NCBI GenBank assembly: GCA_023246095.1
Contig: JAHFJA010000001.1
Location: 1,062 to 65,061 of the forward strand
Direction of reading: 5' to 3'
Length of the DNA stretch: 64,000 bases
Source: a bacterium
GTDB lineage: Bacteria; Patescibacteriota; Patescibacteriia; JACQRZ01
Part shown: positions 3,233 to 56,285 of the stretch, in pieces
Numbering within the stretch: position 1 is the stretch's first letter
How the letters are laid out: each line of letters begins with the position of its first letter
The notes under the pieces: generated by a model
What the model saw: the letters and a program-made list of their open reading frames with translations, nothing else
What the model was told of the DNA's origin: nothing
Database searches by the model: none
Made by a program: the position numbers and the translations under genes

Positions 3233-3649
3233 TTATTTCAAAAGCGCTATCGCTACCACACCGGCGGCAACTCCAGCCCACTGCTTGAGTGTAAGCCCTA
3301 CTCCGAGAATAGGGATACTCAATAGTGAAGCTGCCAATACGGAGCTGATTGAGACTAACGCTACAAACACACCGGCGGGAATACTCGGATCAGTAACCTT
3401 TTCCGAATATAGATAGCATCCTATCCCATTGAGTAGTCCTGCAAACACCAATATTAGAATTGCATTGCGAGAAATAGCCTGATGTCCAAATTGACCAGAT
3501 ACCAGCGACCAAATCGCAAGCGTACCGAAAGTTACAGCAAAGACGATTGTTCCCGTCCATGCGCCTCCAACCCCTGAAAAACGCGCAATGATAGGCCATG
3601 CGAAGCATGAACCGATTAATACCGCCCAACCAACAGTAGTTATACCCAT
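3233..3649 (-). CDS. Small multi-TM membrane protein, EamA/DMT-like.
   Basis: 138 aa, 4-5 predicted TM helices rich in G/A/L/V. Confidence 0.4.
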   Translation of the reverse strand: MGITTVGWAVLIGSCFAWPIIARFSGVGGAWTGTIVFAVTFGTLAIWSLVSGQFGHQAISRNAILILVFAGLLNGIGCYLYSEKVTDPSIPAGVFVALVSISSVLAASLLSIPILGVGLTLKQWAGVAAGVVAIALLK

Positions 3650-3668
3650 TTTTCTCCTCCTAAAAGCT

Positions 3669-4166
3669 TTACATTATAGAACCGTCATCTTCAAAATCAT
3701 TTGCGGAAAGTCGTCGAACCGCAATGCGAAGACATTTTTTATCAAAACCTTTCGTTAGCGGATGCAAAGTAAGCTGGGCAACACCATTATCTGTTTTCAG
3801 AACTACCACGCATAGCTCCCCGTTTCCATTAATGATTTTTTTACCAGGATTCACTAACCAGTGATCTTTAAATAGTTTTTCGGGGATTTGTAGCATTGTT
3901 GGTCCATCAGGCCAGTGTGACCACGAGGTATCATTAAACCAAGTGTCGCATTGTTCAGTCGTGTGGATTTCTATATCTATAGGGATAGCTTTGTAAATCA
4001 GTATTCCCAAGGACGGATCTCCGCAAAAATTTTCTTCGTTGATAGAGGGATCTATCACCTTCTTTGAGTCCTTGATTTGATCAAGAAACGGTAAGGTGTA
4101 ATCCACCCTAAACACTCTAGGGTCACTCCTAGAAACCTTCACTGGTCTTGTATCTACATCGAACAT
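3669..4166 (-). CDS. Hypothetical protein.
   Basis: 165-aa ORF with no recognised motif. Confidence 0.4.
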   Translation of the reverse strand: MFDVDTRPVKVSRSDPRVFRVDYTLPFLDQIKDSKKVIDPSINEENFCGDPSLGILIYKAIPIDIEIHTTEQCDTWFNDTSWSHWPDGPTMLQIPEKLFKDHWLVNPGKKIINGNGELCVVVLKTDNGVAQLTLHPLTKGFDKKCLRIAVRRLSANDFEDDGSIM

Positions 4167-4431
4167 TGTTTTTCCTCCTTTAGAAAAAACTTATAATTGT
4201 AAAGGTGCCTCTCTTGAGATGGTCTCCAAAAAAACTTTTGGTTCACCTTTTTCTTGTTTGGCAGTTTGCCATATTTATACCGTTTTGTCAAGCATACTCT
4301 CGACAGTCGATAGATGACCGTTTGTTGCATCATATACCTCGCTATCGCAATAATAATACTTTGAAGTGGCGTTGGATCCCAAAACAAAAAACACGCCTGA
4401 AGGGCGCATTTCTGCTAGCATCTGCTCACAA

Positions 4432-4576
4432 CTGTCTCTCTTGAACAAAATCCGAACTTTTTTTCAAGAGAATCCAGACGCGGAATTTTGATGCGCCTCC
4501 ATTATCCGCCAACTGGCGGAGACGGACGCCGGATTGGTACATGGCGGAATTCCCCCCACACCCCCCTTCCGCCATG
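4432..4576. repeat. IR-A: left copy of a 145-bp perfect inverted repeat; partner at 9917..10061.
   Basis: Reverse complement of 4432-4576 is identical to 9917-10061. Internal palindromes catggcggaa...ttccgccatg and ccgccagttggcgg; G6TGTG6 tract. Confidence 0.9.
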
Positions 4577-4642
4577 TTTTTGTATTACTAACAATATGCT
4601 TTTTGAGGAGAGTTTGCAAGAAGGCTATCAATGTTATTAAAA

Positions 4643-5260
4643 CTATCTACGCCATGGTGCAGGTGTCACGTCAAAAGTTGTCTGAGAGACGCCTCTTGGA
4701 AATTTCTCCATCATCGTTTTAAATATCACATCAAACACCTTTTCTGCCACATGTAAATTTAAATCATTAAAAATTTTATGTTCATCTTTATCAAGTTTAT
4801 TTTTTGTATTTTGAATATGAAGACGATTACGAACATCCCGCAAAAATTCTAGTGCTGTATAAAAATTTTTTGGTTGTTCAAAAAAATTATATTTCCTAGC
4901 TGTCGCTATGTAATGTTCAAATTTCTCAAGCTTCTTTTTTCGAAACTCAGCAACTTCTGTTTTGGTGACATTTGGTAGTTTGTCAGAAACATGTTCTTGA
5001 ATACGATCTACAAAATCATCCAGGAAGCACTCAATAATGGCGACAATCACCAGCATTATTGGTTTATTGAAATGCATCTTCCTTAAAGGAGGACTATCAT
5101 TTTTTGCATCATACAGCGTCCACAATATTTCCATATTATACAAAATGTTATCACCCTTTTTGAAGCTCCAAATAAAAGTAAAAATTGCTTTTGAAATTAA
5201 ATCTCGCTCTGATGATGTCATAAAATAAGTTAATGTGGTATAGAATACTATGTTTCTCAA
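4643..5260 (-). CDS. Hypothetical alpha-helical protein, possible HEPN-like (Rx6H: RDVRNRLH). Cargo of the IR-bounded element.
   Basis: 205-aa ORF, AT-rich. Motif LRDVRNRLHIQN. No other recognisable domain. Confidence 0.35.
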   Translation of the reverse strand: MRNIVFYTTLTYFMTSSERDLISKAIFTFIWSFKKGDNILYNMEILWTLYDAKNDSPPLRKMHFNKPIMLVIVAIIECFLDDFVDRIQEHVSDKLPNVTKTEVAEFRKKKLEKFEHYIATARKYNFFEQPKNFYTALEFLRDVRNRLHIQNTKNKLDKDEHKIFNDLNLHVAEKVFDVIFKTMMEKFPRGVSQTTFDVTPAPWRR

Positions 5261-5400
5261 GGCTTATCACACACATTATAAAGAAACTATCACGACAGGA
5301 ATAGACCACGGGTCTCTATATTGCTTATATACAACCGTGACAACTAAACTCTAGTTTAACCCTTATTTTATAAGCTTTTTTAACATTGCCTCTATTGCCT

Positions 5401-6882
5401 CTAAAAACCGAGTGTGTAATAAATATTGGTTGATGCACCGTGAGGTTTTATTACACCAGACTCTTTGAGATCCCGAAGGTCTTTATTTATGGTCGCTCTT
5501 GGTGTCTCCTTTAGAATCTTTTGACAATCACTAACTGTAAGCTTTCCCTTGATAAGCAATGAGTCAATAATTTTTATCTGACGTTCATTAATATTATGAT
5601 GTTTTGAACCAAGTAGTATTGCTTCAAAACTATTTACAGAATTTCTAAACAACGGCTCGGGTAAACCCCAATCAGACATTTTCTTTATGACTACATCAAT
5701 ACCACGACCATATTCTTCCAAATATCGCATATCTTTCAACCTCGCAGCAACCATGGAATTGCGACTGAATTGTGCTTCCTTAAGATTATCTACCGTGACA
5801 CCTGGAGGAAGTGAGCCAGGATTGGCAATTTCTATGCGATCTTGAAATACACGAATTTGTGTATATGTTTCAATAATTTTGTAATCACGATGAATAATAG
5901 CATTCGCTATTAACTCTCTAATAGCTTCTTCTGGGTATTCATACCGTTCAACACGTTTAGTACCCTCGATCACTGCATTTTTAGCAATATTTTTTAAAAC
6001 AAATTTATATACTTCATCAATTTGTGAATCAAGCGTACCAGCTATGTCTACTGCATCAATAATTTTAGAAGATGGATCACTACCAGCATAACGAATGCAA
6101 CGAATTACATAACGATCATATGGGCTTTTGTTTTGAGGTATCGCTTTTGCAAAAATCAGATAACCTCCGATAGTTGGTTTATATTGACCATCAAAAGATG
6201 CAATAATATTTAAATTTTCAAGCGTCACATCATCCACGGTAGGTGTAGCACCTCTTTGTATCTGTTCTTCACTTTGCTCGAGAAGTTTAATCACTTTTTC
6301 CTTTGCAATGTCTTCCTTGTTTGTATTCCGTGCCTCTGATAAATCAAATTGGAATTCCTTTGAAGTTGCAACGTAGGTCCTAAATTCATTATCAGTAATT
6401 TTCCTACTAGTATTACCCTCTCGAATATATGCACCATTAGGGAGCCCAATAGGACTAAAGTAACAGGGCATATAGTCTTTTGGACACTCAGGCACAAAGA
6501 CAGCTAATATAGTGACTCCTTCATACTCAATAACATGATATTCTGGCCGTAAAACAAAGCTCATTTTATCATTGAAATACTGCGTTAATTTCGTCTGCAT
6601 TTGGTCTAAATTCGTACAGCCAGTGACTTCATTTTTTTCTTGGTTCACTCCAAACACGACAAGACCCCCACCCCGACGATTAGCAAAAGCAGAGATAGTC
6701 CTCCAAATATCATTTGGAATATTATTTTTTGCGGTCTTAAACTCAAGGTCAGACAACTCACTTGATATTTCTAAACCGTATTTTATTTTTTTAAGTATTT
6801 CATCGTTTGTCATAAAACTATTTTTTGAACGTGCTATTTTTAGATGACCAATCCGTACACACAGAATGACCCGATCTGCCAA
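5401..6882 (-). CDS. AlbA_2 (Schlafen-like divergent AAA) + HATPase_c_4 + C-terminal wHTH protein; putative ATP-binding transcriptional regulator, RecG-C-terminal-like.
   Basis: N-terminus LEFKTAKNNIPNDIWRTISAFANRRGGGLVVFGV is typical of AlbA_2. Central GHKL-like region. C-terminal HTH (KLTVSDCQKILKETPRATINKDLRDLKESGVI). Confidence 0.65.
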   Translation of the reverse strand: MADRVILCVRIGHLKIARSKNSFMTNDEILKKIKYGLEISSELSDLEFKTAKNNIPNDIWRTISAFANRRGGGLVVFGVNQEKNEVTGCTNLDQMQTKLTQYFNDKMSFVLRPEYHVIEYEGVTILAVFVPECPKDYMPCYFSPIGLPNGAYIREGNTSRKITDNEFRTYVATSKEFQFDLSEARNTNKEDIAKEKVIKLLEQSEEQIQRGATPTVDDVTLENLNIIASFDGQYKPTIGGYLIFAKAIPQNKSPYDRYVIRCIRYAGSDPSSKIIDAVDIAGTLDSQIDEVYKFVLKNIAKNAVIEGTKRVERYEYPEEAIRELIANAIIHRDYKIIETYTQIRVFQDRIEIANPGSLPPGVTVDNLKEAQFSRNSMVAARLKDMRYLEEYGRGIDVVIKKMSDWGLPEPLFRNSVNSFEAILLGSKHHNINERQIKIIDSLLIKGKLTVSDCQKILKETPRATINKDLRDLKESGVIKPHGASTNIYYTLGF

Positions 6883-6884
6883 GA

Positions 6885-7493
6885 TTATTTATCATTGATA
6901 CTTTCTGACAGATCATGCATCAATATTACCAAATCTGCTACAGTTATAAAGGAAGGAAATACCTCCTTACCAGCTAGTGTATTGTCAATTGTCTTATTGC
7001 GCCAAATGACCGGGGCATCAAGACAATGTTCAAAATAAAAACTATTATTATGAGCCGATCCATTTCGAATATGCTTAACAAATCTAAAAATGTCCTCTTT
7101 GACCCAATATTTGTGATACTTGGAATACAAAGTTATATCAGATATACCCACCATCATCATTCTTGCCTGCCAATTTATTAATGGTGATAAGTCTGCCTGA
7201 ACCCTAGCACCAGCAAATTTAACGCTTGCCCTTACGTTAAAATCCTGAATTGCACTTTGTGCGGCATATTTTATGACAGGCAATCCATTAAAATCGACAG
7301 AAAGTCCGAGTTCTAACATCCCTCTCTCTTTTTTATGGTGGTCAACTAAAACCCTCTGAAAATCTTTCATAACCATCATATTCATGCCAACAAAAAAGAA
7401 TCTAAAATTTTCTTCAATTGGTCTGAATATCTCATGAATAAATATTTCTTTATCTTGTATACCTGACATAATTTTTACAAATACTCTACGCAT
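6885..7493 (-). CDS. Hypothetical protein with a HEPN-like Rx4H motif (HIRNGSAHNN).
   Basis: 202 aa. R-N-x3-H motif with a polar residue after Arg, as in HEPN RNases. Immediately downstream of the AlbA_2 gene, with a 3-bp gap. Confidence 0.4.
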   Translation of the reverse strand: MRRVFVKIMSGIQDKEIFIHEIFRPIEENFRFFFVGMNMMVMKDFQRVLVDHHKKERGMLELGLSVDFNGLPVIKYAAQSAIQDFNVRASVKFAGARVQADLSPLINWQARMMMVGISDITLYSKYHKYWVKEDIFRFVKHIRNGSAHNNSFYFEHCLDAPVIWRNKTIDNTLAGKEVFPSFITVADLVILMHDLSESINDK

Positions 7494-7515
7494 TGTCTCT
7501 CACCATTTATCGATG

Positions 7516-9780
7516 TTACAAATTCCCTGCTGGAATCTTTTCCAAGTCCTTATTTGTAATACCGATACTGTAATTACGCATTAACTTATAGGCTTCATCC
7601 CCATTTTTCAGATAATAACGCAATCCAGTTTTTGGATAGACGTACCATGCCTCTCCTTTTGATTGAACTTGAAGCAATATCTTCCCTTTTACATCTTTCA
7701 TTGTTGTTGGATAAGCTTTCTTTTCACCTACTTGTGGTAATCGTTTCAAGTCAGTATTCGTAATACCAACCCCAAATTTTCGCATCATGCTATAAGCAGA
7801 CGCACCATCTTTCATATAGTATCTTTTCCCATCTATCGGATTCACATACCATGCTTCACCTTTGGATTCGGTCTGAAGTAAAATATATCCTTTAAGTTTA
7901 TTTTGTAAGTTTTTATCAATGGATTTATTGTTTGTGCTAGCCGATGGATTATTTTGTCCTGACCCGTTACTATCGGCAATAAATAGATTCAATGAATTAA
8001 GAGTATTTAAATCAATATTTTCTAACACAGATGACACTCGTGAATAAGAATTACTACTGCCAGAGTCATAGACATAGCTAGATCCATTGATCCAGCTATT
8101 TACTTTATTTACAGACAAAAGATATCCCATAGAGTTAAGGCTACCTTTTACCACTGCCGATGGTATACCAATAAATGTGCCATTTTTAAGATAAGCACCG
8201 CCACCCGAATTGCCGTGTTCGATGATTGCAGTAGTTTTCAAGTAATTGCCATCAACACCACTAAAATCACCACTAGTATATGTTATTTTCGTACCAAACT
8301 TTGCTGGGTACCCATACGTTGTAATCTTGTCACCCAAACCAAGGTTACTACTGTTACTATTTCCAAGACTAATATAAGTAAGAATCCTATTTGTAGGATT
8401 TCTCAATTTTAATATTGCGACGTCTGTATCGCTTGATACTTTGTAAATATCGGCAATTTGTCTATCACCAAAGTACGGTTCATCATTGTAATTATCAATA
8501 AAACCAACCAAACATCCTGGAGTACCATCAACAACATGTTTATTTGTCAAAATTGTTCCGCTTGAATCAATAACCGTACCAGAACCCTGGCTTGCCATGG
8601 TTTTATCAATAGGACAAATAAGTTTGACAGTAGCTCTGATGATTGTACTTTGATTGGCAATTCCCAAATCTTCGGTCGGCGTTTGTAATTTTGGTTGATT
8701 TGGTGCAACACAGTATTGGGATGTTGGAGGCGATGCCGTTTCAACAGACGAACAATCAAATGTTTTAGTACAGCTTCTTGTTTGTATTCCTTGAGGTGAG
8801 CATGATCCCCAATCACCACATTGCCATGTATCTACAGAACAAGATGGCGCAGTATATGGCGGGACATAAGTGCAAGATTGAGTCGAAGAAGGCGAAGGTG
8901 TACCCCCTACACAATTTGATATTTTATTACAAGATCTGTTCTGAATTCCATTAGCGGCACAAGATCCCCAGCTACTACAAGACCAATCGTCTGTCGTACA
9001 GGTTAAAATAGGAGTACAACTTTGACTTAAAATTGGATTTCCACCTATACAACTAGACGGGGACGATGACACAACGGTGCGAGACTGTTGCCCCTGTGGA
9101 GAACATGCCCCCCAATCAGAATATTTAAAAGATCCGCACGCTGGTGCTAACACATTTACATCAAATGAAGGACTTTGGTAACCATTATTTTGATTACTAC
9201 TTCCGTAATATACCTTTAACGTGTTTGTTCCTATCTTAAAATAACTATTAGCCGTTGATAAAACAATCCTCGCATCCGACCAACTGGCTACAGGTAAAGC
9301 ACTTGCGTATCCTCCTACACTTAAATTTACCACTTTCCCTGCTTCAGAATTGTTAAATCCTTCTCCGTTTATTTCCAATTGATCACCAAGTGTGAGTTGT
9401 GAAGGATAAGAAGTGATCTTAAGTGAAACAAGTAGCTGGCTGGTTCCATAGACAACTCCGTCACTAGCAATAACCTTTATGTTGGCTAAACCCTCAACTT
9501 GAGGCGGGACAGTTACCGAGATAGAATCTTGTCCCCATGACGTGATTGTCGCAGGAGTATCATTTAATAAAACACTTCCTTGTGTTGTTCCAAATCCGTT
9601 TGGACATCCATTGTTATTAACTACATTAATATTAAAATCAGAGATTCTGCCAGTACCCCATGTTATATTATTTTCCGTGATAAACTGACATGGGGCTGCC
9701 ATTGCGGTTTTTGTAGCCACAGAACCAAGAGATATAAATATGATTCCGACAGCAAATAACAGAAAAAAATATTTTTTCAT
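7516..9780 (-). CDS. Secreted trypsin-like (S1) serine protease with three thrombospondin-type-1-like Cys repeats and two C-terminal ~55-aa tandem repeats.
   Basis: Signal peptide MKKYFFLLFAVGIIFISLGSVATKTAMA. Repeats W(G/S)xCSPQGxQxRxC x3. Catalytic triad contexts TNKHVV, DTDVAIL, GNSGGG. C-terminal repeats GEAWYVxPxxGxRYYxKxG...GITNxDLxxxP x2. Confidence 0.7.
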   Translation of the reverse strand: MKKYFFLLFAVGIIFISLGSVATKTAMAAPCQFITENNITWGTGRISDFNINVVNNNGCPNGFGTTQGSVLLNDTPATITSWGQDSISVTVPPQVEGLANIKVIASDGVVYGTSQLLVSLKITSYPSQLTLGDQLEINGEGFNNSEAGKVVNLSVGGYASALPVASWSDARIVLSTANSYFKIGTNTLKVYYGSSNQNNGYQSPSFDVNVLAPACGSFKYSDWGACSPQGQQSRTVVSSSPSSCIGGNPILSQSCTPILTCTTDDWSCSSWGSCAANGIQNRSCNKISNCVGGTPSPSSTQSCTYVPPYTAPSCSVDTWQCGDWGSCSPQGIQTRSCTKTFDCSSVETASPPTSQYCVAPNQPKLQTPTEDLGIANQSTIIRATVKLICPIDKTMASQGSGTVIDSSGTILTNKHVVDGTPGCLVGFIDNYNDEPYFGDRQIADIYKVSSDTDVAILKLRNPTNRILTYISLGNSNSSNLGLGDKITTYGYPAKFGTKITYTSGDFSGVDGNYLKTTAIIEHGNSGGGAYLKNGTFIGIPSAVVKGSLNSMGYLLSVNKVNSWINGSSYVYDSGSSNSYSRVSSVLENIDLNTLNSLNLFIADSNGSGQNNPSASTNNKSIDKNLQNKLKGYILLQTESKGEAWYVNPIDGKRYYMKDGASAYSMMRKFGVGITNTDLKRLPQVGEKKAYPTTMKDVKGKILLQVQSKGEAWYVYPKTGLRYYLKNGDEAYKLMRNYSIGITNKDLEKIPAGNL

Positions 9781-9916
9781 AATGTTATTAATATAGTTTA
9801 CTTGCTATTAATATGACACAAAAGATTGTCCAAGACAATAGCTCTACAATAGATTAGTGTGCCCGTTTCTTTCTTGCAAACTCTGCTCAAAAAGCATATC
9901 GTTAGTAATACAAAGA

Positions 9917-10061
9917 CATGGCGGAAGGGGGGTGTGGGGGGAATTCCGCCATGTACCAATCCGGCGTCCGTCTCCGCCAGTTGGCGGATAATGGAGGCGC
10001 ATCAAAATTCCGCGTCTGGATTCTCTTGAAAAAAAGTTCGGATTTTGTTCAAGAGAGACAG
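9917..10061. repeat. IR-A': right copy of the 145-bp perfect inverted repeat.
   Basis: Exact reverse complement of 4432-4576. Confidence 0.9.
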
Positions 10062-10185
10062 GTGTGTGTATATGCCCCCTCTTTCGCCCCCTTTGGGGGC
10101 TTGAGAGTTTTGAAACCCAATTGAACCCAACCCCATTTTTCCCCTGAATTCAAAAACAAAATCCCATGGTTTAGTAAAATCCACT
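10062..10185. repeat. IR-C: left copy of a ~124-bp near-perfect inverted repeat flanking the recombinase gene; partner at 11631..11753.
   Basis: Reverse complement matches 11631-11753 with about 3 mismatches or indels. Contains ccccctctttcgccccctttggggg. Confidence 0.85.
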
Positions 10186-10193
10186 TTCCGCCT

Positions 10194-11813
10194 ATGGCGG
10201 AAATATCCAAAGCGACACACAATATAATTCATATAGCCACCTCTAATATGAATACGTTCTTTCTCTACGCTCGCAAATCAACGGATGAACCTGACAGGCA
10301 GATCCTTTCCATTGAGGCACAAATAACCGAACTTCGTGAATTTGCCCAGCGAGAACATCTTGATATCGTGGATACCTTTATTGAATCGCAAACAGCCAAA
10401 GAACCAGGGCGCCCCATATTCAACAAAATGCTTGATCGTGTAGAGAAAGGCGGTGCTAATGGTATTTTGGCGTGGCATCCTGATAGACTTGCTCGCAACA
10501 GTGTGGACGGAGGGCGTGTAATCTATCTCACCGACACGAGAAAGCTTGTCGACCTCAAATTCCCCACCTTTTGGTTTGATGCCACGCCACAGGGCAAATT
10601 CATGCTCAATATCGCATTTGGACAGTCAAAGTACTATGTAGATAATCTCTCGGAGAATGTAAAACGAGGATTACGGCAAAAAGTACGGCGAGGCGAACAG
10701 GTCGGACGAGCACCGATGGGATATCTCAATGATCTTGTGACAAAGAAGATGATACCTGATCCCCAACACTGTCGCCTCATCCGAAAAGTATTTGAGCTGT
10801 ATGCGACAGGCAATTATTCTCTCAAATCCCTCCGAGAGATTATCTTTGACGAAGGATTGATGAGTGGAACAGGCAAAAAGCTCTCTATTTCCATGATACA
10901 AAAAATCCTCACCAATCCATTTTATTATGGTGCGTTTCTCTTTAACGGAGAGCTTTTTGCGGGTACTCATGAACCATGCGTGTCAAAGAAACTGTTTGGG
11001 CAAGTACAAGCAATCCTGACAAGCAAGACAAATCCGAAAAAACGAGGCGAGAAGCAGTATCCACTTCGAGGTTTATTTATCTGTGGCGAGTGCGGATGCA
11101 GTATCACATCAGAAACACACAAAGGACATGACTACTATCGTTGTACCAAGAAAAAGGATGTAAAATGCTCGCAAAAATATATTCGCGAAGAGCTTCTCGC
11201 CCAACAACTATCAGAGATGATACAATCAGTTTCTTTACCCACAGATTGGGCAGAAAATATGCTTGAACAACTGGAAACAGACGAAACAAGTACCGCCCAA
11301 TCTGATGTCCTTTTCGCTCAAACCATTAAGGATCAGATAAAAATGTGTGAAACAAAACTGGATACCCTGCTGGACGCGCACCTTGAGCAGGTCATAACAA
11401 GGGATGAATATACCAGCAAGAAAAACAAGGTGATGTCTCAAAAAATGGATTTGGAGCAAACACTAAATGAATTTGAGCGAAAGGGCAACGCATGGCTCGA
11501 ACGCACTCGTGCGTTCATAAATACCGCTAATCAAGCGGAAAAAGTCGCTTTGGATGAAAATTTGTTTGCAAAAAAAGATTTTCTAAAAAAACACGGCTCG
11601 AACCGCCTCCTCGCCGACAAAACGGCTCGGGTGGATTTTACCAAACCATGGGATTTTGTTTTTGAATTCAGGGAAAAAATGGGGTTGGGTTCAATTGGGT
11701 TTCAAAACTCTCAAGCCCCCAAAGGGGGCGAAAGAGGGGGCATATACACACACCTGCGGGACATGGACTCGAACCATGATACCATCCTCCAGAGGGATGT
11801 GTCCTACCATTAG
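10194..11813 (+). CDS. Large serine recombinase (resolvase/invertase catalytic domain + recombinase domain + zinc ribbon).
   Basis: YARKSTDEPDRQILSIEAQ catalytic Ser motif. LAWHPDRLARN. GRAPMGY recombinase domain. CGECGC...YYRC zinc ribbon. The ORF reads without a stop through IR-C' into the tRNA, so the true C-terminus is uncertain. The true start may be the internal MNTFFLYARKST. Confidence 0.85.
   Translation: MAEISKATHNIIHIATSNMNTFFLYARKSTDEPDRQILSIEAQITELREFAQREHLDIVDTFIESQTAKEPGRPIFNKMLDRVEKGGANGILAWHPDRLARNSVDGGRVIYLTDTRKLVDLKFPTFWFDATPQGKFMLNIAFGQSKYYVDNLSENVKRGLRQKVRRGEQVGRAPMGYLNDLVTKKMIPDPQHCRLIRKVFELYATGNYSLKSLREIIFDEGLMSGTGKKLSISMIQKILTNPFYYGAFLFNGELFAGTHEPCVSKKLFGQVQAILTSKTNPKKRGEKQYPLRGLFICGECGCSITSETHKGHDYYRCTKKKDVKCSQKYIREELLAQQLSEMIQSVSLPTDWAENMLEQLETDETSTAQSDVLFAQTIKDQIKMCETKLDTLLDAHLEQVITRDEYTSKKNKVMSQKMDLEQTLNEFERKGNAWLERTRAFINTANQAEKVALDENLFAKKDFLKKHGSNRLLADKTARVDFTKPWDFVFEFREKMGLGSIGFQNSQAPKGGERGGIYTHLRDMDSNHDTILQRDVSYH
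11631..11753. repeat. IR-C': right copy of the ~124-bp inverted repeat; ends exactly at the 3' end of tRNA-Gln.
   Basis: Reverse complement of 10062-10185. The terminal cacacacc abuts ctgcggg (tRNA 3' acceptor strand). Confidence 0.85.
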
Positions 11814-11824
11814 ACGATCCCGCA
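11754..11824 (-). tRNA. tRNA-Gln (anticodon CUG).
   Basis: Minus strand: UGCGGGA acceptor pairs with UCCCGCA. Anticodon stem CAUCC/GGAUG with loop CUCUGGA. T-arm CAUGG-UUCGAGU-CCAUG. Discriminator G; no encoded CCA. Confidence 0.85.
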
Positions 11825-11847
11825 GTTCTAAGTACATGCGATAATTT

Positions 11848-12930
11848 TTACTCTCTCATACACCCCTTCACGATGGCGACCTCAAGCGGCAATTGAGGTA
11901 ACGAAAACCATTTTGCGTCTTTTTGCGCTGACATCCAATGGCTAATCAGCGTTAATATCTCTCCCATAGAGAGAACTGATGAAAGCTCAATAAATTTCAA
12001 GTTTGCCACTTCATCAGCATCCACCAACCCTGCCACATTATTTTTGTACAACATGATGTTGCGAAGGTACTCTATCATATCCCCCACAAAGACATCAAGA
12101 TCTACCCCATTCTCAATCAATTGATCAACGAGTGTAAGGCCTTTATGCGAGTCTTTAACACTCAGTGCATCAGCCATAGCTAATACAAGCGCATGATCAG
12201 TGCGAGGTAATATCGCGGACGCATCTTTATAAGTGATCGCATCTCCCAGTGATAAGACTTGACCTAAGAGACTCTCTGCATCACGCTGACACCCTTGAGA
12301 AAGTCGAACAATATCCTGCAACACCTCTTTCTCAATTGTCTTTTTTTCACATTTCGTGATAAACGCCAAACGAGCAAACATTTCCTTTGCAGGAATTTTT
12401 TTGAAATCAAACCGTTCACATCGAGAAATAATTGTCGCGGGAACTTTATGGAGTTCAGTAGTAGCAAATATAAACACGACATGGGCTGGCGGTTCTTCAA
12501 GAAGTTTGAGTAGTGCATTAAAGGCCGAAGTGGAAAGCATGTGCACTTCATCGATAATGAATACCTTATTGACCAACTGAGCATTAGCCACTTTCGCCGC
12601 ACCTATTATATTCTCACGCACATTATCAACCCCCGTGTGTGATGCAGCATCGATTTCAATGACATCAAGAGTACGTCGATCCAAAATCGACCGACAAGGA
12701 TCACATTCGTTACATGGCTCAGCCGTCCCAGGTTTTCGTTTTATACAATTTATGGCACGCGCAAAAACACGTGCAGTTGTTGTCTTTCCCACTGCGCGAG
12801 GTCCGGAAAACATGTATGCATGGGCAATACCTCCCGCGATGATTTCGTTTTGCAACGTCAACTTGATCGGCTCTTGCCCGATGATGTCAGCAAAAAGCTG
12901 TGGACGATAGGTTCGGTAAATTGCGCTCAT
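11848..12930 (-). CDS. dnaX: DNA polymerase III subunit gamma/tau, short form (domains I-III).
   Basis: GPRAVGKTT Walker A. Zn module CNECDPC. FIIDEVHMLS. SRCERFDF. Confidence 0.85.
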   Translation of the reverse strand: MSAIYRTYRPQLFADIIGQEPIKLTLQNEIIAGGIAHAYMFSGPRAVGKTTTARVFARAINCIKRKPGTAEPCNECDPCRSILDRRTLDVIEIDAASHTGVDNVRENIIGAAKVANAQLVNKVFIIDEVHMLSTSAFNALLKLLEEPPAHVVFIFATTELHKVPATIISRCERFDFKKIPAKEMFARLAFITKCEKKTIEKEVLQDIVRLSQGCQRDAESLLGQVLSLGDAITYKDASAILPRTDHALVLAMADALSVKDSHKGLTLVDQLIENGVDLDVFVGDMIEYLRNIMLYKNNVAGLVDADEVANLKFIELSSVLSMGEILTLISHWMSAQKDAKWFSLPQLPLEVAIVKGCMRE

Positions 12931-55364: not shown

Positions 55365-56159
55365 CTATTTGCTACAAGGTACAGGCTCAACGCCTTTATG
55401 TAAATCGGTGATGAAGTTAACCCAACAAAAGCTTTTAGAGTCTTTGTTGCATTTTTTATAATTATCCCAAACAAATCGATTAAACGATTCTGCGAGAATA
55501 CTCTTTTCTCTTCCTTTTTGGATCATGATATTCATCAATCCTAGCTCATAGCTCCAAGCTTTCAACTCATAATCAAGAAATACTGCGCGAGTCTCGACAA
55601 CGTGACTATCACTACCCTCATGTTCGTAGTGATAAAATTCATGGAGTATGGTCAAAAGAAAACGATCTTTAAATGCTTCTGCATCAAGAGTTTTTCTCCC
55701 TTTGATCCAATTTTTCGCAGAAATACTGAAAATAGAATGTCCATCGCACCGACTAAATGAAGCCAACACATTGTCTCGAACCGGATCCATATTTAACTGT
55801 ATCCTCCCTGATTTACCTTCTATAGCAAACCGGTTATACGGTTCACGCAGTTCTTTTATGGGATAGTGTTCCAATTCAGTAAGAAGACCAAAAAAGTCTT
55901 TTTCAATATTTCTTTTCTCCTCTTCTGAGACAATAAGGGGTATTGAAGTCGCTGCCGAGATGGGCTTGCTTGCTGTAACTTCGTTGTTTTGTACTACAGA
56001 TGAGATATCACTCACTGTCGTATGTTGCATTTGTAACTTCACCTGAGCAAAAAATGCCAATACTACAACAATAATCCCAAAAATTATTTCTACCTTTTTC
56101 ATTGTACTTTTCTCCTGTGTTTGATTTAAAATAACGATAACTTGCCCCGAATATAGCAT
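55365..56159 (-). CDS. Membrane-anchored HExxH protein (HEFYHYEHE); paralog of 41..985.
   Basis: TM IIFGIIVVVLAFFAQ. HExxH then FLDYELKAWSYELG, parallel to the 41..985 protein. True start likely at MKKVEII. Confidence 0.5.
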   Translation of the reverse strand: MLYSGQVIVILNQTQEKSTMKKVEIIFGIIVVVLAFFAQVKLQMQHTTVSDISSVVQNNEVTASKPISAATSIPLIVSEEEKRNIEKDFFGLLTELEHYPIKELREPYNRFAIEGKSGRIQLNMDPVRDNVLASFSRCDGHSIFSISAKNWIKGRKTLDAEAFKDRFLLTILHEFYHYEHEGSDSHVVETRAVFLDYELKAWSYELGLMNIMIQKGREKSILAESFNRFVWDNYKKCNKDSKSFCWVNFITDLHKGVEPVPCSK

Positions 56160-56285
56160 ATTTTACCTATTTTGTCAAGGTTACGCCTGTCAAAATCCTT
56201 TAACTATAAGAAAAGGGAGTCAATACAAGACAAATCGCCTCCATATTGTTGTCCTAACCCTCTTTTTGTGCTATAATAGTCGCAT

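Follow-up and report, generated by a model that had tools for sequence, protein, structure and literature searches.

The segment at positions 4643-9780 of the 64,000-nt stretch of contig JAHFJA010000001.1 analyzed here (the window, whose numbering is used throughout) is probably the variable cargo slot of an integrative element that encodes a large serine recombinase (LSR) and is inserted at a tRNA gene. The cargo would be a mosaic that includes three defense-type genes and an unrelated protease gene. The original prediction, made from the nucleotide sequence, described the segment as a defense and secretion cassette and proposed that it is a mobile defense module. The recombinase-bearing element could be delimited, and its relatives carry mostly restriction-modification (R-M) and other defense genes, which supports the proposal of a mobile module. 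The cargo is not one recurring system, and the term secretion cassette was an overstatement, since one exported protease only is encoded. The features of the element and its borders are the following (position, strand when applicable, description, and basis).

4387..4413, minus strand: terminator-like hairpin followed by a T-run, on the host side just outside the left end (terminator scan)
4432..4434: left crossover core CTG; attL consists of host B, core and P′ (identity with the internal junction starts here)
4435..4622, plus strand: P′ arm, which forms the left side of the 205-nt inverted repeat around the cargo (repeat alignment)
4643..5221, minus strand: 192-aa HEPN-like protein with invariant RNxxH, D69x3R73 and E64; the open reading frame (ORF) extends to 5260 if a TTG start is used (family alignment and model)
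5401..6813, minus strand: 470-aa AlbA_2/Schlafen protein with HATPase_c_4 and a weak C-terminal winged helix-turn-helix (wHTH); the ORF extends to 6882 if a TTG start is used (Pfam and plasmid homologs)
6885..7493, minus strand: 202-aa HEPN-family protein (Abi2/pEK499_p136-like) with the motif R143-N144-x3-H148 (motif conservation, model and homolog loci)
7516..9780, minus strand: 754-aa S1 protease of the Trypsin_2/HtrA-like kind, secreted, with a putative signal peptide, a TIG domain and two sets of repeats, three that are Cys-rich and two at the C-terminus (Pfam and translation)
9871..10184: internal junction formed by the reverse complement of P′ (9871-10058), the core (10057-10059) and the reverse complement of P (10060-10184) (alignment)
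10194..11813, plus strand: large serine recombinase with Resolvase, Recombinase and Zn_ribbon_recom domains (Pfam; phrog_95, 1.4e-83)
11631..11756, plus strand: P arm and right crossover core, the right arm of the 126-nt repeat; attR consists of P, core and tRNA (alignment)
11753..11825, minus strand: tRNA-Gln(CUG), the integration target, whose last 3-4 nt come from the element (Rfam scan and tRNA scan of relatives)

The carrier is a 7.3-kb integrative element (4432-11756) located at the 3′ end of the tRNA-Gln(CUG) gene, with the layout attL–cargo–inverted attP–recombinase–attR. Apart from two inverted pairs, the window has no long repeats. One pair brackets the cargo (4418-4622 with 9871-10075, 205 nt, 97% identity) and the other one brackets the recombinase gene (10059-10184 with 11631-11756, 126 nt, 98% identity). 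When reverse-complemented, the region 9871-10184 reads P arm (the 3′ end of the recombinase gene), CTG and P′ arm, i.e., it is an inverted, attP-like circle junction. The right junction of the element is composed of P, CTG and tRNA-Gln, the left junction is composed of host DNA, CTG and P′, and the core bases at the left junction are the same as those that end tRNA-Gln. The three recombinase domains, the B-core-P′ and P-core-B′ junctions and the short shared core are those of an LSR element. The empty attB site is predicted to be ...GCTCACAACTGCGGGACATGG.... The GC content of the element is 35%, and that of the flanks is 42-46%.

The hairpin at 4387-4413 aligns with the terminator located after tRNA-Gln in one of the related loci described below, L061, as well as with the element's own P arm, and the order spacer, hairpin and T-run found at 4387-4413 is also that directly after tRNA-Gln in L061 and that in the P arm. 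Since the hairpin lies outside attL and aligns with the L061 terminator, the element appears to have split tRNA-Gln from its terminator. The hairpin is apparently the original terminator, now 7.3 kb from the tRNA, and the LSR would have inserted the element between the two. An Rfam scan of positions 3500-12500 detected the tRNA only. Misassembly of the inverted repeats was considered and rejected because the arms differ by single-nucleotide polymorphisms (97-98% identity) and the layout is present in 66 of 80 relatives. Furthermore, an independent Logan contig, L007, is exactly identical to window positions 4548-9945 and is a second assembly of the same DNA, and the 5620 bp of an ENA contig correspond to the cargo together with the two P′ arms, in this case by length only. 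These two contigs, together with the polymorphisms in the arms, argue against misassembly.

A scan of public metagenomes for the recombinase identified more than 586 loci, of which 80 were fetched and analyzed (L026-L105). An inverted repeat of 85-179 nt surrounds the recombinase gene in 66 of them (a few arms are shorter at contig ends), and most contigs of the other 14 stop inside or just beside this gene. A second repeat pair around the adjacent cargo was found in 17-18 relatives when strict criteria were applied and in 27 by inspection. The repeats of this pair are 47-390 nt long (shorter in arms at contig ends) and enclose a 1.8-5.8-kb segment; the inner arms overlap by 3-25 nt in most of the relatives with both pairs. 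The target abutting the recombinase 3′ end is tRNA-Gln in the closer relatives and tRNA-Ser in those at 50-55% identity, and in the nine relatives checked, the terminal 4-8 nt of the tRNA are found again at the far end of the element. In L061 (recombinase 77% identical; 8323-8645), L052, L068 and L035, the tRNA is upstream and on the same strand, opposite to the arrangement in the window. Therefore, both recombinase orientations occur among the relatives. The simplest model for this architecture would be an excised circle with two inverted attP copies that integrates in either orientation; inversion of a module or cassette exchange may also be possible.

The cargo of the relatives is dominated by R-M genes. 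A domain census of 85 proteins of at least 95 aa from 27 related elements showed 16 matches to DNA methyltransferase families (seven N6_N4, six D12, two C5 and one EcoRI methylase) and at least six type II restriction enzymes (EcoRI, HinP1I, ScaI, MvaI/BcnI, R.Pab1 and TdeIII), as well as HNH, T5orf172, AAA_13 and CBASS domains (SMODS and AGS_C). A methyltransferase motif is present in at least 13 of the 27 cargo segments. None of the 107 cargo proteins from these 27 elements resembles the cargo of the window.

The element shares with phiC31/Bxb1-type integrases, SCCmec Ccr and XisF the three-domain recombinase, the site-specific integration, the very short attL/attR core and the tRNA 3′ end as target. 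It differs from LSR elements and prophages in that it has an internal inverted attP-like copy, and in that cargo and recombinase are each enclosed in inverted repeats of 85-390 nt. The P1 C-segment/cin, the Mu G-segment/gin, the yeast 2-micron plasmid and engineered recombinase-mediated cassette exchange are parallels for a multi-kb segment within inverted repeats and an adjacent serine recombinase. As in such inversion modules, both recombinase orientations with respect to the tRNA are seen among the relatives, although between loci and not within one population. Unlike Hin/Gin, the recombinase is of the large integrase type and is itself bracketed, and the repeats end in an att-like core that is the tRNA 3′ end. 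The double inverted-repeat layout was not found described in the literature searched.

Other observations were made on the element and its relatives. The P arm gives a hairpin similar to that at 4387-4413, with a weaker T-run, beside the tRNA. Both P′ arms (4536-4576 and 9917-9957) include another hairpin, ATGGCGGAA, a 17-nt C-rich loop and TTCCGCCAT, which is followed by a T-run and had no Rfam match. The arms of L030 and L092 have near-identical copies of this hairpin, and L086, L094, L100 and L105 have 31-nt matches to it; the recombinases of the relatives that share it are only about 50-68% identical. The recombinase ORF reads through the P arm (11631-11813, plus strand) and does not end before the antisense of tRNA-Gln. 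A 76-aa ORF on the minus strand (10002-10232) repeats the C-terminal peptide of the recombinase as a consequence of the P-arm repeat. If the element were circular or flipped, the end of the recombinase would be ...GGIYTHLSLLNKIRTFFQENPDAEF instead. The recombinase gene of L035 is located between two inverted tRNA-Gln genes (CTG and TTG).

The cargo slot includes, as had been predicted, four co-directional ORFs, all on the minus strand: 754 aa (9780..7516), 202 aa (7493..6885), 493 aa (6882..5401) and 205 aa (5260..4643). All motif strings quoted in the original prediction were found in the translations: KHIRNGSAHNN is at aa 140-150 of the 202-aa protein, RDVRNRLH at aa 141-148 of the 205-aa ORF, and LEFK...SAFANRRGGGLVVFGV at aa 46-79 of the 493-aa ORF. 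The protease and 202-aa genes are separated by 22 nt. The 2-nt gap between the 202-aa and 493-aa ORFs needs a TTG start, and the NCBI/ENA gene call for the latter begins at the ATG at 6813 (470 aa), which leaves a gap of 71 nt. Every homolog of the 205-aa ORF begins at its M14, which is most likely the true start and gives a protein of 192 aa. The gap between the AlbA_2 and 192-aa genes is then 140-179 nt, and the spacer includes promoter-like hexamers, so the 192-aa gene is probably a separate transcription unit.

No two of the four families co-occurred outside the window, except in L007, when every fetched locus was scanned using HMM and phmmer searches. The 202-like and 205-like families were never found together, nor with an AlbA_2 protein or the protease, in the other loci examined. 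The claim that this combination recurs in defense islands did not hold; it is the individual genes that recur, each on its own, in defense operons elsewhere. A conserved four-gene system was rejected for the same lack of co-occurrence, and the cargo is considered a mosaic, not one system, because the four genes are together nowhere else. A comparison with the multi-gene systems of PADLOC-DB v2 identified no component match for the cargo; there were domain-level matches only (the N-terminal region of pAgo and the protease domain of an RT-protease system).

The 202-aa protein has only two close homologs among 5.8 billion clustered proteins. An exhaustive profile search showed that its family comprises at least 250 cluster representatives at E<1e-3, and there is no Pfam or PADLOC model for it. 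Residues R143, N144 and H148 are invariant in the 18 closest relatives. Across 80 relatives, R143 is invariant and N144, H148, F138, F152, W164 and D194 are conserved in at least 90%, and the family consensus around the motif is FxRHxRNGxAHxNxF. The motif R143-N144-G-S-A-H148 has the Rx4-6H spacing of HEPN proteins and a polar residue after the Arg. According to Anantharaman et al. (2013; PMC3710099), Rx4-6H in HEPN proteins lies where a helix ends and the next loop begins. The AF2/AlphaFold model of the 202-aa protein (predicted local distance difference test (pLDDT) 95, predicted template modeling score (pTM) 0.88) has R143 and N144 near the C-terminus of helix 134-147, and H148 as the first loop residue, which is the position expected for HEPN; the last helix is 185-199. 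A Foldseek search of the model against PDB and BFVD produced no significant match, to HEPN or other folds, and therefore fold-level confirmation as HEPN is missing for this protein.

Direct database searches with the 202-aa window protein were negative (no Pfam match at E≤0.1; PADLOC, NCBIfam and PHROG scans also empty). A Pfam scan of 80 family members gave weak matches (best E 3.6e-4) to pEK499_p136 (5), Abi_2 (4) and HEPN_LA2681 (1), and no non-HEPN Pfam family was matched by more than one member. In the PADLOC scan of the family, 9 of 11 matches were AbiD (5; 6.7e-5), Cas13b (3) and CARF_HEPN (1), and the remaining two were single matches to uncharacterized PDC candidates. The protein does not reach the gathering threshold of Abi_2/AbiD-AbiF (PF07751), and in view of the lack of Pfam and PADLOC matches, it is treated as part of a related HEPN clade, not as a member of PF07751. 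When the family profile is aligned with the annotated Abi protein encoded on plasmid pAQ3, LrhiRNaaAHnNkF corresponds to LSHIRNICAHH. Neither this profile nor that of the 192-aa family found anything meaningful among PDB sequences, and tblastn searches with the 202-aa protein detected no match in phage genomes or plasmids.

A genome search for relatives of the 202-aa protein was seeded with a six-sequence alignment, and all seven genome matches were in Patescibacteria. In four of nine other loci the homolog is within a type I/III R-M operon. In L008 and L009 it is flanked, at distances of 2 nt, by the genes for an N6_N4 methyltransferase and a ResIII helicase (Mod-X-Res); it is located between HsdS and a 1018-aa HsdR in L010, and directly after an HsdR-like helicase gene in L002. 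The Abi2 and pEK499_p136 HEPN clades have also been reported to be embedded in R-M operons (PMC3710099). Besides this location of its family, the 202-aa protein shares with Abi2/AbiD/AbiF (PF07751) and pEK499_p136 the h-x-R-N-x-x-A-H motif; it differs from them in that it is below every threshold, is shorter than the ~300-aa pAQ3 Abi protein, has predicted beta-hairpin inserts and has no R-M neighbor here. PrrC/RloC-type anticodon nucleases are nested in type I R-M loci, and the 202-aa homologs, which have an HEPN-type motif, hold the equivalent slot between specificity/modification and restriction genes (L008-L010). In contrast to these nucleases, with which the sequences were compared by motif alone, the 202-aa protein has no ABC-ATPase domain and no R-M partner in the window. 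Judging from its motif and the loci of its homologs, the 202-aa protein may be a metal-independent RNase which, once triggered, arrests growth or leads to abortive infection.

The 192-aa protein represents a family of at least 154 clusters with no Pfam domain and no PADLOC model. Direct Pfam, PADLOC, NCBIfam and PHROG scans of the 192/205-aa protein found no match, and neither did a tblastn search of phage genomes. Fifteen positions (192-aa numbering) are invariant in 84 relatives: W18, D24, N25, N29, K53, E64, D69, R73, Y121, R131, N132, H135, Q137, E147 and R176. The string RDVRNRLH had been taken as Rx6H, a reading that relies on R128, which is R or Q among homologs; the invariant motif is R131-N132-x-x-H135, i.e., Rx3H. 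Rx4-6H is conserved as the RNx3H motif of the 202-aa protein but not in the 205-aa ORF. The invariant E64 and D69-x3-R73 lie within helix 45-76, as expected for the second conserved acidic residue of HEPN helix 2, which is typically part of Ex3[KR]; here it is Asp and not Glu. The model is all-alpha (pLDDT 92, pTM 0.90), and R131-H135 is at the end of helix 118-135.

When the 192-aa model was compared with PDB using Foldseek, the three best meaningful matches were HEPN proteins: 1ylm (YutE; E 0.17, probability 0.99, TM-score 0.54 normalized to the target), 2hsb (AF_0298; E 0.29, probability 0.98, TM-score 0.59) and 1jog (HI0074; E 2.1). The E-values of these matches are weak. Like YutE/DUF86, AF_0298 and HI0074, the protein is all-alpha, with R/H at a helix end and an acidic-x3-basic pair in an earlier helix. 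Unlike these minimal HEPN proteins, it has the three-residue spacer of RNxxH and an extra N-terminal block (W18, D24, N25 and N29), and no nucleotidyltransferase adjoins its gene. The possibility that the 202-aa and 192-aa families are paralogs was also considered and rejected, as an hhalign profile-profile comparison was not significant.

Homologs of the 192-aa protein are found in diverse loci. In L006 (8001-10776) and L018 (628-9782), the gene is directly upstream of that of a ~730-aa KAP NTPase, forming a tight pair, and in L018 this pair is preceded by genes for a PLD-SNF2 helicase and an Eco57I-type methyltransferase. In L021/L022 (2500-6560), which are Rhizobiaceae plasmids, the homolog follows an ATPase and an S8 peptidase. 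These loci may be uncharacterized multi-gene defense systems. Other homologs follow an OLD-like ATPase in an island with an integrase (L016), lie close to an HpaII R-M system (L015), or are Tn3 cargo next to resolvases and a HigA antitoxin (L020). Two contexts were uninformative. Large serine recombinases were also observed a few kb or less from the 205-like gene at two loci, both with no long inverted repeats: the recombinase of L003 (13529-15238) adjoins smpB, and that of L016 (8931-10997) is part of the island, which has a tyrosine integrase.

The predicted AlbA_2 block and GHKL-like ATPase region of the 493-aa ORF were both identified above Pfam gathering thresholds (SLFN_AlbA_2, aa 42-162, 3.8e-18, 66.6 bits, cut-off 25.3; HATPase_c_4, aa 341-423, 2.7e-22, 79 bits, cut-off 26), but the predicted C-terminal wHTH was detected at sub-threshold level only. 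The HTH models TrmB, DeoR, ArsR and HxlR match aa 428-489 with E values from 8e-4 (TrmB) to 0.04, all below their gathering thresholds, and Csa3-type HTH matches in PADLOC are at ~1e-3. The AlbA_2 plus HATPase_c_4 module aligns with the N-terminal part of the PADLOC pAgo model. The PHROG label "DNA helicase" was rejected because it looks like an inherited misannotation that reflects the historical name of HATPase_c_4. COG2865-type proteins, which consist of AlbA_2 and HATPase_c_4, are often mislabeled "RecG-like helicase" or "ATP-binding protein"; the protein described here has the same domain order, and its homologs are present in type I R-M operons and defense islands. The plasmid homologs (218 records) are 24-29% identical, and in four of seven plasmids inspected they are part of defense operons. 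The homolog occupies the HsdS-X-HsdR position in pAQ3, an Acidovorax plasmid and an Arcobacter plasmid, and in Desulfosarcina it is between DUF1156 and PLD anti-phage genes in a DUF1156/PLD/TIR island. In contrast, the AlbA_2 gene of the window has no flanking hsd genes. These domains and contexts suggest a nucleic-acid-binding or -sensing accessory or regulator, which possibly controls the 202-aa gene.

The prediction of a secreted S1 protease was supported by the Trypsin_2 domain (aa 399-539 of the 754-aa protein, 2e-16, 61.5 bits), the GNSGG motif and a putative signal peptide. Pfam also confirmed the TIG domain, and inspection of the translation showed the GNSGGG serine motif and the hydrophobic N-terminus, MKKYFFLLFAVGIIFISLGSVATKTAMA. 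The protease is probably exported and unrelated to the other three cargo genes and to defense. Three ~45-aa Cys-rich repeats with the pattern W..W..CS..G.Q.R were observed at aa ~214-357, which look thrombospondin-type-1-like by eye and had no Pfam match, and two ~55-aa C-terminal repeats, LLQ..SKGEAWYV.P..G.RYY, at aa ~640-750. Outside the element, there is a 40-nt direct repeat of 83% identity with copies 55 kb apart (1047-1086 and 56154-56193) and a 22-nt near-perfect repeat with copies 75 nt apart (1085-1106 and 1160-1181) upstream of the gene at 41-985.

Taken as a mosaic, the cargo would supply the protease, the 202-aa HEPN protein, an AlbA_2–GHKL-like–wHTH accessory and a separately transcribed 192-aa HEPN-like protein, and both HEPN-type proteins would be RNases that act in abortive-infection-like responses. 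A conserved HEPN-type motif is present in both small proteins, as predicted, at the helix end or the start of the next loop. Since its R, N and H residues are conserved among the relatives of both proteins, the motifs are more than chance occurrences. The defense reading of the three genes is based on these conserved active-site-type residues, on weak similarities directed exclusively to HEPN proteins, and on guilt by association. The association is seen at two levels, the operons of the homologs and the cargo of the element family.

Several results weigh against this reading. The three candidate defense proteins of the window have no direct match to PADLOC, Pfam HEPN or NCBIfam models, and no R-M or KAP homolog was found anywhere in the 64-kb window. 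The spacing of the 192-aa motif is outside Rx4-6H, one residue shorter, the E-values of its three HEPN matches in PDB are weak (0.17-2), and the two small-protein families are not significantly similar at the profile level. Six homolog contexts (L005, L011-L014 and L017) include nothing defense-like, three of the seven AlbA_2 plasmid contexts are neutral, and related elements also carry genes for an aldehyde dehydrogenase, a P-type ATPase and an M20 peptidase. All the functional statements rest on association.

A more far-reaching proposal, which we consider possible and put forward tentatively, is that this undescribed LSR family, widespread in bacteria of the candidate phyla radiation and targeting tRNA-Gln or tRNA-Ser, is a dedicated shuttle with paired repeats for R-M and other defense genes, and that the two HEPN-like families are new stand-alone defense effectors. 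The two inverted attP copies on the circle would allow insertion in either orientation, inversion of the modules and swapping of cassettes between elements, as in engineered cassette exchange.

Alternatively, the HEPN-type genes could be addiction or stabilization modules that keep the element in the genome, with the AlbA_2-wHTH protein as repressor or antitoxin. HEPN toxins are common in toxin-antitoxin pairs (PMC3710099), the genes reside on a small mobile element, the 202-aa gene is directly followed by that of a protein with a wHTH-like tail, and the Tn3-borne 205-like homolog lies by resolvases and HigA. We find this explanation unlikely, as there is no MNT or other recognized antitoxin, in nine other loci the 202-like family is accompanied neither by AlbA_2 nor by a constant small partner, and the R-M embedding favors the defense-accessory role described for the Abi2 and pEK499_p136 HEPNs. 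It is also improbable that the genes are unrelated non-defense passengers, in which case the AlbA_2-wHTH protein would simply regulate transcription, perhaps that of the protease gene, and the two small helical proteins would have non-catalytic binding or regulatory functions. The absence of direct database matches to the small proteins, the non-canonical 192-aa motif, the uninformative homolog contexts and the occasional metabolic cargo of related elements could be accounted for in this way. However, catalytic-type residues are strictly conserved across 80-84 divergent homologs, homologs are found repeatedly in R-M, KAP, OLD and PLD operons with 2-4-nt gene spacing, and the R-M bias in the cargo of the element family is strong. 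A single defense-and-secretion system in which all four genes co-operate is very improbable: the genes are co-directional, with 22-nt and 2-71-nt gaps among the first three, and the Rhizobiaceae loci are a loosely similar set, but the combination was found nowhere else among the loci examined, the protease, given its signal peptide and its domains of extracellular type, cannot reach partners in the cytoplasm, a separate region of 140-179 nt with promoter-like hexamers precedes the fourth gene, and the GC profile suggests a mosaic.

The cargo genes are apparently new representatives of recognized kinds of proteins, and the carrier apparently has a previously undescribed LSR-element layout, which is the most interesting outcome of this analysis. 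Immunity in bacteria of the candidate phyla radiation is poorly charted. If the defense reading of the mosaic is correct, two uncharacterized families (at least 250 representatives and at least 154 clusters, respectively) would join the candidate defense repertoire, and genes that are usually nested in R-M operons would be able to move as free-standing cargo. The recombinase family of more than 586 loci would provide integrases whose tRNA targets are defined, and, if the layout supports inversion or cassette exchange by a large serine integrase, recombinase-mediated cassette exchange as engineered in the laboratory would have a counterpart in nature.

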